A DNA stretch of 32,000 nucleotides, taken from assembly GCA_016700135.1 (NCBI GenBank), contig CP065004.1:1170001-1202000 (forward strand). The letters run 5' to 3'. Shown here one piece after another: positions 303-3,461 of this stretch (position 1 is the stretch's first letter; the number at the start of each line of letters is the position of its first letter). The notes below the pieces were generated by a model. The model was not told where the DNA came from, searched no databases, and saw only the letters and a program-made list of their open reading frames with translations. The stretch is from Candidatus Saccharimonadota bacterium (lineage in GTDB: Bacteria; Patescibacteriota; Microgenomatia; UBA1406; GWC2-37-13). The position numbers and the translations under genes were made by a program.

Positions 303-375
303 GCCAATGTAGCTCAGTTGGTAGAGCAATGCTTTCGTAAAGCAGAGGTCGGGGGTTCGACTCCCCCCATTGGCT
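303..375 (+). tRNA. tRNA-Thr (anticodon CGT)
   Basis: Hand-folded 73-nt cloverleaf: GCCAATG-TA-GCTC-AGTTGGTA-GAGC-A-ATGCT-TTCGTAA-AGCAG-AGGTC-GGGGG-TTCGACT-CCCCC-CATTGGC-T. The acceptor stem pairs 7/7, and the T-loop (TTCGA) and D-loop are canonical. CCA is not encoded. Confidence 0.95.
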
Positions 376-376
376 C

Positions 377-1093
377 ATGAGATCCCGTCTGTATCAACAT
401 AAACAGCATGAAAACAACAGAAAGTTGTTTGGATTGCTGCTTTTCATACTTATACTGAGCGTATTTATGGTCACGGTAGGATTTCGTTTGCTAATAAACG
501 CGACAATATTTATAAGCGGTTTGATCAACCCGCAATCTGAGGAGACTGCACAGGAAAAGAATAAAGAAGATTTTTACGGAGTCTTTGATCTTGAAGAACC
601 GCCCACTGCTACAAACTCTGCTCAAATATACGTTTCAGGAACTGTTGAAGATTTTGAGAAACTGGATATTTATATCAACAATACGAAAGCGGAGTCAGTG
701 ACTGTAAAAGGGAAGAGCAGTTTTAATGAAAAGATCGGTCCTTTAAAACAAGGTGAAAATAAGATTTATGCCATTGCCAGATCCGGTACCGAACATTCAA
801 AAGAATCTGAGACATATACAGTTTTTTACAAGAAAGAACCTTTAAAACTGGAAATCGAATCACCCTCAGCAGACATGAAAACGTCGACACAGGAACTGAG
901 TATTAAAGGATTGACCGACCAGGGTGCATCACTTCGTGTAAACGGCCAACCGATTGTTGTTGACCTTTCAGGGGAGTTCAGTAGTACTTACCGGCTAAAA
1001 GACGGCGAAAATACCCTGCTGTTTGTAGCAACGGATGCAGCCGGAAATACCGTGGAACAGGAGCTGAAAGTCACGTATCAAAGAGAGGATTGA
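377..1093 (+). CDS. Membrane-anchored protein with two tandem Ig-like/beta-sandwich repeats (hypothetical)
   Basis: 238-aa ORF with a basic N-terminus and a TM helix (LFGLLLFILILSVFMVTVGF). Two repeats follow, each ending in a ...LK.GEN.....A.......Y.V.Y pattern. The ATG begins 1 nt after the tRNA-Thr discriminator base. Confidence 0.75.
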   Translation: MRSRLYQHKQHENNRKLFGLLLFILILSVFMVTVGFRLLINATIFISGLINPQSEETAQEKNKEDFYGVFDLEEPPTATNSAQIYVSGTVEDFEKLDIYINNTKAESVTVKGKSSFNEKIGPLKQGENKIYAIARSGTEHSKESETYTVFYKKEPLKLEIESPSADMKTSTQELSIKGLTDQGASLRVNGQPIVVDLSGEFSSTYRLKDGENTLLFVATDAAGNTVEQELKVTYQRED

Positions 1094-2256
1094 GTTCTGT
1101 GACTTTTTCTATACCCTTCAAGTAGAAACAAAAGAAACAACAAAAACGGATGCAGCAGAACATTATCAAATACTGAAATCACGCTCAAAAGGACAATACC
1201 AAACATCATAAATTCTGATGTCCTGGCAAGACTGATAAGCATCCATATATACAAACCAAGACCGATCACGCCTCCGGTCACAAGTATGACTAAAAAGCTT
1301 GAATGAAACGCAGTACTGCCATGTGAAGGATTATAAGGTCCGTAAAACAACTGTTCTTCATATATGTCCTTTTCGTATCTAATGTGGTTGTAGCCTATTC
1401 CCGCTACAGGATTTTTTCTCCAAATCATAATTGCTTTTTCATAATCATTGATTCTGGCTTCGATTGAAGTTGTCCTCAATAAATTTATTCCTTCACTTGA
1501 GCCTTTGGGAATAAAAAGAAAACCGGCGACTAAGACCGCTAAGCCAATCAATACAGTTTTCCGGCTGAACCTCCTGATGACGTACAATACGCTGACTGCA
1601 ATCAGTGCCAACCCCCCCCCTCTTGAGTATGTCAGAAAACTCAGTATAAAAAGGGGAATTATAAATCCGAGTTTTTTCCAATCATGATTGCTTTGCAGTT
1701 CAAGCAGGTAAAATATCATGAGCAAAAGAAATACAGATACGGTCACGGGAGGATCAAAAAAAAGTCCTACCACCCGGTATAAATGAGGGTCCCAACCGAG
1801 ATAAGCCAGATTGCCGAGATTCTGATACAGGAAGTACTGAATAAATGAAGACAAAATAACCCAGACTGTGACTAGATTAAGAATAACAATAGGCCGTTTT
1901 GATTGCTTCTCATGAGTAAAAAAATAACTGACATACACATAAAAGATAAAATAAAGAAGAAGTCTAAGATAATACAAAAACGCAACGGTATTTTGTTCTA
2001 AACTATAAAATCTCAAAGAAAGAACAAATGATATAAGTATCCAGATAAAAAAAACGATAATGGGGCTGTATTTGCTCTCCATCAGCGGATTTTTACGGTA
2101 CTTCACTAGTAGGATACCCGACACCGCTGCTACAAACACTTCGTAGAGATAAAAAAATACCGGCTGTTCCGGAATGCTGATTCTTGCAAGCTGCCCAAAA
2201 GAAAATAAAACAAGTGATATGCTCAACAGAACCGTAATAATCCGTGTTTTATTCAT
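1078..2256 (-). CDS. O-antigen ligase/polymerase-like (Wzy_C family) polytopic membrane protein
   Basis: 392-aa ORF with about 10 hydrophobic segments and a ...TYSRGGGLALIAVSVLY... motif typical of the O-antigen ligase domain. Its start overlaps the stop of the upstream GT2 gene by 8 nt. Confidence 0.8.
   Translation of the reverse strand: MNKTRIITVLLSISLVLFSFGQLARISIPEQPVFFYLYEVFVAAVSGILLVKYRKNPLMESKYSPIIVFFIWILISFVLSLRFYSLEQNTVAFLYYLRLLLYFIFYVYVSYFFTHEKQSKRPIVILNLVTVWVILSSFIQYFLYQNLGNLAYLGWDPHLYRVVGLFFDPPVTVSVFLLLMIFYLLELQSNHDWKKLGFIIPLFILSFLTYSRGGGLALIAVSVLYVIRRFSRKTVLIGLAVLVAGFLFIPKGSSEGINLLRTTSIEARINDYEKAIMIWRKNPVAGIGYNHIRYEKDIYEEQLFYGPYNPSHGSTAFHSSFLVILVTGGVIGLGLYIWMLISLARTSEFMMFGIVLLSVISVFDNVLLHPFLLFLLFLLEGYRKSHRTQSSL
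1612..1620 (-). repeat. G9 homopolymer (C9 on the + strand) inside the O-antigen-ligase-like CDS
   Basis: accccccccct at 1611-1621 encodes Gly-Gly-Gly as GGG GGG GGG in the SRGGGLAL motif. Confidence 0.9.
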
Positions 2257-3001
2257 GTTTCATCTGTTTGATAAATAACGTACTTCGAACGAGAAATGAG
2301 TGAAAGCTCATCAAAAATGAATACACAAAGCCCGCAGTTCCGTCCTTTAAGCCTCCTTTGATCACATATGTGTAAAGAAACTTCCCGATGGGAAAAGCAA
2401 CTATCTCATACATATTAGTTCGCTTATTCAGCAAGAATAATTCATCGGCGCGGATCTGACTGTACGTATTTATGTGCTGCAGGAACTCATGTATCGTCTG
2501 GTGAGGGTAATGCTCAATAAAACCGTCCAACGATGATATTCGGCCGACAGTGGTCCATTCTTCATGTATCGAACCTTTCCATAAACCGGATCCTTTCTTC
2601 ATCAGGCGAATAATTCCGCGTTTATAAACTTTTGCAACCTCTCCATGCTCGAGGACCCTTCCCATAAACCGGTCCCGTCTTCGCAGATAGTACGCATCGG
2701 CACTCGGTTGTTCCATCTCGTGCCTGATATTTGCCCGCAGATCAGGACTGATTTCTTCATCCGCATCAAGATACAACAGCCAATTGCCTTTCGCCTGCTC
2801 AGCTCCGAGATTTCGCAAATTTGAAAAGTTTCCGGAAGTTTTGTCATATATCACCCGTGCTCCGGCTTCATGTGCTATTTCTCCCGTTTCATCGGTTGAA
2901 TTGTTGTCTATAAGAAGGAGTTCGTCACAAAAAGAAAGTGATTTTAATGCCTGCTGTACAATCTCAGCCTCGTTTTTTGCTATAACAATACCGGTAAGCA
3001 T
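2249..3001 (-). CDS. Family 2 glycosyltransferase
   Basis: 250-aa ORF. The N-terminus GIVIAKNEAEIVQQALKSLSFCDELLLIDNNSTDETGEIA and the downstream LYLDADE (DxD-like) are typical of GT2. Confidence 0.9.
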   Translation of the reverse strand: MLTGIVIAKNEAEIVQQALKSLSFCDELLLIDNNSTDETGEIAHEAGARVIYDKTSGNFSNLRNLGAEQAKGNWLLYLDADEEISPDLRANIRHEMEQPSADAYYLRRRDRFMGRVLEHGEVAKVYKRGIIRLMKKGSGLWKGSIHEEWTTVGRISSLDGFIEHYPHQTIHEFLQHINTYSQIRADELFLLNKRTNMYEIVAFPIGKFLYTYVIKGGLKDGTAGFVYSFLMSFHSFLVRSTLFIKQMKHE

Positions 3002-3003
3002 GA

Positions 3004-3258
3004 TTATAGTTCTATTTTACTCGTATCAAGAGTATCAAGGAAGTACCAAATACCGTGAAGAAGACCGTATAAAGCAATTGAGGCAATAACGAATATAATG
3101 ATCCAAATAGTCATCCTTTGACCTTGCGTTTTTGTCATTTTGAGTTTGTCATCATATTCTATCGCAGCAAAAAAGATTGCATGAAACAAATCGAGAACAA
3201 ACCGTTTGAGAAAATTAAAAACAGTCCACATATCAATTGCAGTTAACGCTAACAGCAT
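3004..3258 (-). CDS. Small hypothetical membrane protein (85 aa from ATG 3258; shorter starts possible)
   Basis: The ORF-track entry 3004..3324 runs into the tRNA, so it is trimmed to the first ATG downstream of the tRNA 3' end (3258, 4 nt after the tRNA). It has a C-terminal TM helix (MTIWIIIFVIASIALYGLLHGIWYF). Its stop is 2 nt from the GT2 start. Confidence 0.4.
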   Translation of the reverse strand: MLLALTAIDMWTVFNFLKRFVLDLFHAIFFAAIEYDDKLKMTKTQGQRMTIWIIIFVIASIALYGLLHGIWYFLDTLDTSKIEL

Positions 3259-3262
3259 ATAT

Positions 3263-3439
3263 TGGTCGTACCTTGACTTGAACCAGGGACCTTCCGAACC
3301 TGCCCACCGCTTTTGTGCACACATCTGGACTTGAACCAGAGACCTTTCGAATGTGAATCGAATGCTCTACCAACTGAGCTATGTGTGCTATGGCAGGCGG
3401 GTGTGAATCGAACGCTCTAGCCAACTGAGCTATACGACC
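3263..3439 (-). tRNA. Interrupted tRNA-Val(CAC)-like gene: 5' half 3439-3402, 3' half 3298-3263, with a 103-nt insert (3401-3299) at anticodon-loop position 37/38 that contains another tRNA
   Basis: The halves join into a 74-nt cloverleaf: GGTCGTA-TA-GCTC-AGTTGGCTA-GAGC-G-TTCGA-TTCACA|T-TCGGA-AGGTC-CCTGG-TTCAAGT-CAAGG-TACGACC-A. The acceptor stem pairs 7/7 and the anticodon stem 5/5 (one G.U). There is one G.A mismatch at 52-62. Whether it is functional or a relic is unknown. Confidence 0.6.
3316..3388 (-). tRNA. tRNA-Val (anticodon CAC), nested within the interrupted tRNA
   Basis: Perfect 73-nt cloverleaf on the minus strand: GCACACA-TA-GCTC-AGTTGGTA-GAGC-A-TTCGA-TTCACAT-TCGAA-AGGTC-TCTGG-TTCAAGT-CCAGA-TGTGTGC-A. 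CCA is not encoded. Confidence 0.95.
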
Positions 3440-3452
3440 AAAGACTAGAAAG

Positions 3453-3461
3453 ATTATATCA
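3453..3461 (-). promoter_or_regulatory. Extended -10 element TGaTATAAT upstream of the tRNA-Val locus
   Basis: The reverse complement of 3453-3461 is TGATATAAT, 13 nt upstream of the outer tRNA 5' end (3439). Confidence 0.45.

Follow-up and report, generated by a model that had tools for sequence, protein, structure and literature searches.

The tRNA-Thr/ATG junction

The DNA examined here, 32,000 nucleotides (nt) from Candidatus Saccharimonadota bacterium (contig CP065004.1, positions 1,170,001 to 1,202,000; hereafter, the window), carries near its beginning a tRNA-Thr gene that lies a single nucleotide upstream of the start codon of a membrane protein gene. Along the forward strand, the 3′ end of a GH18 glycosyl-hydrolase gene (1 to 276; Pfam Glyco_hydro_18, E = 4e-10; stop codon TAA at 274 to 276) is followed by an extended −10 element, TGgTATAAT (281 to 289); by a tRNA-Thr gene with anticodon CGT (303 to 375; Rfam RF00005, 69.5 bits, and ARAGORN); by a single C (376), which is tRNA position 74 and is invariant across all tRNA-Thr loci compared; and by the ATG (377 to 379) of an open reading frame (ORF) of 238 amino acids (aa) that ends at 1093. 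The junction reads ...CATTGGC-T-C-ATG-AGA...: the 3′ strand of the acceptor stem (368 to 374) pairs with 303 to 309, and T375 is the discriminator. ARAGORN sets the boundary of the tRNA at 303 to 376, counting C376 as the first base of a partial CCA.

This arrangement was noticed in a first-pass annotation of the window, whose coordinates and description are confirmed: both the sequence and the Rfam match end the tRNA at T375, without an encoded CCA and one C before ATG377, and the ORF list gives 377 to 1093 as a 238-aa membrane protein ORF, with one transmembrane helix. As the annotation also held, a 1-nt spacer is too short to hold a promoter or a ribosome-binding site, and the sole promoter-like element is the TGgTATAAT upstream of the tRNA; the 3′ part of the tRNA contains no −10-like hexamer. 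The tRNA thus lies upstream of the ORF on the same strand, with neither promoter nor terminator between them.

Judged from its sequence, the tRNA-Thr(CGT) at 303 to 375 is a functional gene and not a t-element, an att remnant, or another kind of remnant. It has a full cloverleaf and a CGT anticodon, and its stems show compensatory changes across orthologues: across 14 orthologous tRNA-Thr genes, pairing holds in 97.3% of cells, and 13 of the 21 pairs have changed on both sides, values reached in none of 500 shuffles. The cloverleaf also forms in the predicted fold of the transcript context, where the AUG is unpaired in the centroid structure. In two related loci (L127:2057-2128 and L128:3929-4000), a very different allele takes the place of the tRNA-Thr(CGT) body; it is 72 nt long and has a short D-loop and a variable loop of 4 nt. 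The flanks, including TGgTATAAT and ggctcATG, are near-identical to those of the window, and the protein is 88% identical. This is a clean in-place replacement of the tRNA in which the ggctcATG junction was kept. The idea that this tRNA heads an mRNA on account of the rarity of ACG was rejected, since ACG occurs at 13.7 per 1000 codons, like other Thr codons.

Partial copies of tRNA-Thr were seen at two other loci: L030 (oriented, ∼2155 to 2204) has only the anticodon arm through the 3′ end, and L001 (2432 to 2475) has a T-arm/acceptor remnant inside its spacer. Both look like scars of integration at the tRNA or, for L030, an assembly chimera.

The 238-aa protein and its start codon

The protein has a basic N-terminal tail, one transmembrane helix, and Ig-like domains (Pfam Glucodextran_B/Big_13). 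Its closest relatives belong to Candidatus Roizmanbacteria, of the Microgenomates in the candidate phyla radiation (CPR); one of them, P0005, is 99% identical. ATG377 had been proposed as its start codon, with the reservation that the true start might lie downstream; comparison of the N-terminus in homologues upholds ATG377, which we take to be the real start. The N-terminal motif M-(R)-S/T/G-R-L is kept in 34 homologues and is followed by a basic stretch and the transmembrane helix; in a 13-sequence alignment subset, R4 and L5 are invariant. Three relatives (L127, L129, and L130; 88, 76, and 65% identity) keep ggctcATG, and their codons 2 to 10 differ from those of the window only synonymously: the first codons in the window and these relatives read AGATCC CGT CTG, AGATCG CGC CTA, AGATCC AGA CTG, and AGATCC CGT TTG.

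Public gene calls for the same protein are shorter (P0002, 208 aa, and P0005, 190 aa, both 99 to 100% identical to the 238-aa ORF; P0006 to P0013, called at 208, 190, or 218 aa in the same genome or close relatives). They give some credence to a start at Met31 or at the site annotated for the 190-aa version, which would make ATG377 incidental. Such a downstream start is scarcely believable: residues 1 to 30 are conserved as protein, the changes that follow ATG377 are synonymous only, Met31 lies inside the transmembrane helix, so that a protein begun there would lack the basic cytoplasmic tail and half of the membrane anchor, and homologues whose ATG lies far from the tRNA begin at the same M-S-R-L. 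The 208-aa and 190-aa versions are start-calling errors, apparently because the true start lies right next to a tRNA and lacks a ribosome-binding site.

Conservation of the junction within the Ig-like protein family

We collected loci of this protein family with a fixed-length Ig-domain DNA pattern run against genome contigs; about 30 of the matches listed were usable, most of the others being unrelated Ig-domain genes. Throughout the family, tRNA-Thr(CGT) precedes the gene for the Ig-like protein, and synteny with Wzy_C, GT2, and GT4 genes is kept. The distance from discriminator to ATG falls into three classes. It is exactly 1 nt, always C, in the window and in L127/L128, L129, L130, L037, L024, L091, L126, L056, L030, and L029, so that the GGCT-C-ATG junction is found in 11 species-level loci among the matches listed, window included, all of which have ATG as the start codon. 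It is 6 to 15 nt, with no room for a promoter, in L123, L102, L131, L094, L049, L113, and L048. In the remaining loci it is 24 to 151 nt, and most of these carry, 6 to 13 nt before the ATG, a −10-like box that matches TATAAT at 5 or 6 of its 6 positions, as in L005 (TATAAT-N6-ATG) and L070 (TGgTATAAT-N9-ATG); L028, L038, L074, and L003 have only weaker or more distant −10 candidates. No listed locus has a spacer between 1 and 6 nt. Where the tRNA encodes its CCA, in L124, the ATG follows the CCA directly.

Proteins at the 1-nt loci show 30 to 57% pairwise identity, and in a neighbor-joining tree these loci form the backbone of the Roizmanbacteria clade. The longer spacers with a TATAAT of their own look like derived insertions. 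Taken as a comparison of sequences, these patterns argue that the junction has been kept over deep divergence and did not arise by chance.

Recurrence of the junction in metagenomes

The junction extends beyond this family. Scanning metagenome contigs with the pattern TCGTAA-N15-TTCRANT-N9-GGCTCATG returned at least 120 further tRNA-Thr(CGT)-C-ATG junctions; the matches listed, to which the counts in this section refer, comprised 111 nonredundant junctions, 97 of which have at least 100 codons of downstream sequence. The frame set by the ATG is open for ≥100 codons in 42 of these 97, compared to 2 of 97 for the +1 frame and 5 of 97 for the +2 frame; the junction recurs more often than chance would allow. 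Among the long ORFs, two large families stand out, the Ig-like protein (14) and release factor 2 (RF2; 14); ∼17 others are singletons, among them GalU, RsmI, UDG, a DedA protein, an aminotransferase, and an MBL hydrolase. Twelve full-length RF2 proteins share 42 to 92% pairwise identity and stand behind 12 distinct tRNAs. NCBIfam alignments of GalU, RsmI, UDG, and full-length RF2 begin at profile positions 1 to 5, so their N termini are canonical, and in other junction genes the NCBI and JGI gene callers themselves chose the abutting ATG, giving exactly the same protein sequences. The named hosts of junction proteins are Patescibacteria or Candidatus Spechtbacterales, and the junction appears to be common in Patescibacteria.

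The patescibacterial RF2 genes (prfB) that start at tRNA-Thr(CGT)-C-ATG encode proteins of ∼290 to 300 aa (L138:3405-4280, L169, L172, L198, and others). These proteins lack approximately the first 25 residues, where the usual frameshift region lies, and part of domain 1.

Other tRNAs behave differently. The first-pass annotation had proposed that starts close to tRNA 3′ ends might be enriched across the genome. This holds insofar as the junction recurs for tRNA-Thr(CGT), but among 98 other tRNAs on the same fetched contigs only 3 have an ATG-initiated ORF of ≥100 codons within 12 nt. The junction is therefore frequent for tRNA-Thr(CGT) and is not a genome-wide system.

Promoters and leaderless context

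The TGgTATAAT element ends 13 nt before position 1 of tRNA-Thr and recurs 12 to 13 nt upstream of the tRNA in L127, L129, and L130; a TATAAT-like box lies 12 to 22 nt upstream in L037, L024, L091, L056, and L126. An upstream TATAAT-type box is thus present 12 to 22 nt before the tRNA in all nine assessable tight-junction loci. In the window, transcription would start near position 296 and give the tRNA a leader of 6 to 7 nt. A terminator scan found no terminator-like site between the GH18 gene and tRNA-Thr.

As the first-pass annotation had suggested, leaderless architecture is a theme of the window. A −10-like hexamer ends 5 to 9 nt before the ATG in 9 of its 28 genes, against 0.70 expected, while a Shine-Dalgarno core is found in only 1 of 28. 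Five of the nine −10 hexamers end at 6 nt, which would put the transcription start on the A of the ATG, and three end at 8 nt, implying natural leaders of 1 to 2 nt. By default, this genome appears to make leaderless or near-leaderless mRNAs, and an AUG at or next to the 5′ end would therefore be a normal substrate for the organism. TATAAT-like boxes ending 6 or 8 nt before the ATG were seen, for example, at the starts 5306(−), 18195(−), 20843(−), 25377(−), 27473(−), 3508(+), 25447(+), and 29511(+).

ATG377 shares with these genes an AUG start and the absence of a Shine-Dalgarno core. It differs from the nine in having no −10-like hexamer 5 to 9 nt upstream: the bases from −12 to −7 are CCCCAT and lie within the acceptor arm of the tRNA. 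An internal promoter in the tRNA was considered and rejected, since a TANNNT box stands at the right distance in no tight-junction locus.

The single C and tRNA 3′ processing

The C between discriminator and ATG is typical of tRNA genes in these bacteria. Of 70 tRNAs in the fetched loci, 67 have a C directly after the discriminator; C74 is encoded in 91 of 98 tRNAs other than tRNA-Thr(CGT) in the fetched CPR-like loci (L001 to L251) and the window; and the two bases after the discriminator are CA in 43 cases, CC in 30 (17 of them CCA), and CT in 16. Because C74 is nearly universal in the sampled genes, C376 is best understood as the generally encoded position 74 and not as an arbitrary spacer, and ATG377 is as near to the tRNA as it can be without loss of C74. 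We know of no description of near-universal C74 encoding; it may reflect a requirement of RNase P or of the 3′ nuclease. C75 and A76 are usually not encoded, and the trailer most often begins with CA.

RNase Z normally cuts directly after the discriminator. The first-pass annotation accordingly expected cleavage after position 375, leaving an mRNA that begins C-AUG; this is possible, and it is only one option. Cytidines right after the discriminator suppress the RNase Z of Bacillus and wheat, and archaeal RNase Z enzymes cut after an encoded CCA (PMC7479834). Given this inhibition and the encoded C74, a cut after C376, leaving an exact 5′ AUG, is equally possible.

Neighboring genes and the tRNA-Val locus

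The 238-aa gene is convergent with a glycan operon that encodes Wzy-like and GT2 proteins, and its 3′ end overlaps the Wzy-like gene by 16 nt (1078 to 1093); the terminator scan found no terminator-like hairpin near this overlap on either strand. The rest of the window contains a cell-division and cell-wall cluster, the genes for L21, IleRS, and RNase HII, and other genes.

The convergent operon appears as a second tRNA-headed unit, at 1078 to 3458 on the minus strand, with a TATAAT at 3452 to 3457, a tRNA-Val, and a 31-nt spacer without a −10. Its genes encode a small, conserved membrane ORF (MWTVFNF..., starting at ATG 3231), GT2 (2249 to 3001), and the Wzy-like protein (1078 to 2256). With this layout, the glycan operon apparently depends on the promoter of tRNA-Val. 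A candidate second tight junction, at ATG 3258, only 4 nt after the outer tRNA-Val, was rejected as not conserved; the conserved start, that of MWTVFNF, is ATG 3231, 31 nt downstream of the tRNA.

The tRNA-Val itself is composite. At 3263 to 3439 (minus strand), an older tRNA-Val(CAC) is interrupted exactly at the boundary of anticodon-loop positions 37 and 38; the insert, ∼103 nt long, carries a second, intact tRNA-Val(CAC) (3316 to 3388, minus strand) between the arms of a 10-bp inverted repeat, CCCGCCTGCC / GGTGGGCAGG. The outer tRNA-Val is uninterrupted in L127 and L129, and only the inner type is present in L130. In the window, the outer copy has a G-A mismatch in the T-stem and has lost C74, and it looks like a pseudogene that was replaced in place; ARAGORN in intron mode did not call the split gene.

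A conserved long hairpin, CCGCC...CTCAAGAC...GTCTTGAG...GGCGG, occupies the 134- to 151-nt spacers of two Ig-like family loci (L003:2351-2500 and L006:2368-2500). The sequence of its 3′ arm, GCGGTGGGCAGG, recurs unchanged as the 3′ flank of the tRNA-Val insert in the window (3299 to 3310, minus strand), and two copies of the element appear to be translated in P0040, an N-terminally extended gene call. An Rfam search with the long spacer of L003 gave no match. Possibly this is a small mobile element with tRNA loci as its targets.

A model for mRNA formation at the junction, and alternatives

As in mitochondria, tRNA processing probably releases the mRNA for the membrane protein. In the proposed sequence of events, tRNA-Thr(CGT) and the membrane protein gene would form one transcription unit driven from the −10 at 281 to 289, possibly with added read-through from the GH18 gene. 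The uncut precursor would be untranslatable, with a folded tRNA 2 nt from the AUG and no Shine-Dalgarno sequence. RNase P would trim the 5′ leader of the tRNA, an endonuclease (RNase Z or a functional equivalent) would cut at its 3′ end, after U375 or the encoded C376, and a CCA-adding enzyme would complete it. The downstream mRNA would then have its AUG at, or 1 nt from, a 5′-monophosphate end and would be translated in leaderless mode, as we suppose for most promoter-proximal genes of this genome. An endonucleolytic cut is likely because purifying selection acts on the gene in many species although its precursor should not be translatable. We infer that the two genes are co-transcribed and that the processed end is translated leaderless, and likewise the nuclease and its exact cut site; the combination of co-transcription, a cut at the tRNA 3′ end, and leaderless translation is one that we favor with moderate confidence. 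The interpretation offered in the first-pass annotation is to this extent partly supported, the comparative evidence for it being strong.

Several observations weigh against this model. The C directly after the discriminator is of the kind that suppresses the Bacillus and wheat enzymes (PMC7479834). Neither RNase Z nor a CCA-adding enzyme was found by tblastn of the fetched loci or in the Pfam annotation of the window, and a protein database search with Bacillus RNase Z gave Bacillus proteins only among the matches listed. An mRNA with a 5′ monophosphate would be open to attack by RNase J, and it would be destroyed if the tRNA 3′ end matured by an exonucleolytic route. The 1-nt spacing is not required, since family members of other lineages have promoterless spacers of 6 to 15 nt. 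Finally, L030 has only the last 49 nt of the tRNA before its ATG, with an alpha/beta-hydrolase-like ORF reading through the partial tRNA; unless this contig is chimeric, its gene must be expressed in another way.

Some of these points suit an alternative in which the two genes are co-transcribed but the tRNA 3′ end is matured by a downstream cut and 3′-to-5′ trimming by PNPase and others, so that each precursor yields either tRNA or mRNA and protein comes only from a precisely cut minor fraction or from read-through RNA. CPR bacteria are reported to retain PNPase, RNase J, and RNase III (PMC12641178), tblastn found no RNase Z in the window or the fetched loci, and C74 disfavors a Bacillus-type RNase Z (PMC7479834). 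Even so, translation would still need a precise cut, which makes this competition different from the processing model in yield and not in kind, and so wasteful an arrangement is hard to reconcile with a junction that 11 species have kept and that is met again in front of essential genes, that for RF2 among them; we think it rather unlikely. We give less credence still to an unrecognized promoter over the 3′ half of the tRNA, starting transcription at or near A377, with the adjacency a matter of compaction. Primary leaderless transcripts are the norm in the window, which speaks for it, but CCCCAT is what stands at −12 to −7 of A377, none of the tight-junction loci has a TANNNT box there, and the site is constrained by tRNA pairing and covaries, so that a shared motif could not persist across the various acceptor and T-stem sequences.

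In a third alternative, for which nothing speaks directly, ribosomes would translate the tRNA-mRNA precursor while it is still uncut, and the tRNA would act as a structured 5′ element. From what is known of initiation, a folded tRNA at −2 would prevent the docking of 30S subunits as well as the 5′-end-dependent entry of 70S ribosomes. The acceptor stem ends 2 nt before an AUG that lacks a Shine-Dalgarno sequence, and the cloverleaf is stable in the predicted transcript fold, which leaves direct translation of the precursor very improbable.

Comparison with known systems

A literature search, within the coverage of one library, found no bacterial start codon abutting a tRNA that had been interpreted as we propose. 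The closest parallel is the tRNA punctuation model, reportedly put forward for animal mitochondria by Ojala, Montoya, and Attardi in 1981. As there, the tRNA abuts the coding sequence (0 to a few nt) on the same strand, and the coding sequence has no promoter or ribosome-binding site of its own; excision of the tRNA by RNase P and RNase Z would, here too, make the end of an mRNA that is translated leaderless. The likeness drawn in the first-pass annotation stands for this abutment but not for the system as a whole: unlike mitochondria, this is a bacterium with ordinary promoters, the ORF is flanked by a tRNA on its 5′ side only and meets a convergent gene at its 3′ end, very few other tRNAs (the 3 of 98 above) are so placed, and no stop codon is completed by polyadenylation.

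Mixed tRNA-protein operons are familiar from Escherichia coli, where thrU-tyrU-glyT-thrT-tufB has a spacer with a Shine-Dalgarno sequence and canonical translation. Both arrangements have tRNAs, including tRNA-Thr, upstream of a protein gene in what here is presumably also one transcript begun at the tRNA promoter, from which the tRNA is released by processing; the intergenic Shine-Dalgarno leader of the tufB type is replaced at the window junction by a single C. Primary leaderless mRNAs are known in Actinobacteria, Deinococcus, and archaea (PMC4633059, PMC4007540, PMC4681348), and their architecture, TATAAT-N6-8-ATG, dominates the window. The membrane protein mRNA would resemble them in having its AUG at or within 1 to 2 nt of the 5′ end and no Shine-Dalgarno sequence. 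Whereas they have a triphosphate end made by initiation, its end is predicted to be a monophosphate made by cleavage, with no −10 before the ATG. In plant mitochondria and Haloferax, t-elements allow RNase P and tRNase Z to set exact RNA ends (PMC1920247, PMC4946936). Here, too, a tRNA-shaped structure would set the exact end of a neighboring RNA, but it is a genuine, covarying tRNA-Thr and not a mimic, the neighbor is an mRNA start codon, and the setting is bacterial.

Implications

A broader and tentative proposal, possible but to us doubtful, is that Patescibacteria have co-opted tRNA 3′-end processing as a regular maker of mRNA 5′ ends, maintained by selection, with tRNA-Thr(CGT) and its own −10 forming a portable head. 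The nuclease would then cut after the encoded C74 or an encoded CCA, so that the mRNA starts exactly at the AUG, and the portable promoter-plus-processing head would serve RF2, GalU, RsmI, UDG, and the Ig-like envelope protein. If true, this would be a bacterial counterpart of mitochondrial tRNA punctuation.

There is a practical consequence in that gene callers truncate genes whose start abuts a tRNA. The near-universal C74, for its part, raises a question about the tRNA 3′-processing enzyme of these bacteria. The model makes a concrete prediction about RNA ends in uncultivated CPR bacteria; if it is correct, the junction would be a conserved instance, in bacteria, of an mRNA whose beginning is defined by a tRNA and not by a promoter or a ribosome-binding site, and it would link mixed tRNA operons, leaderless translation, and mitochondrial punctuation.

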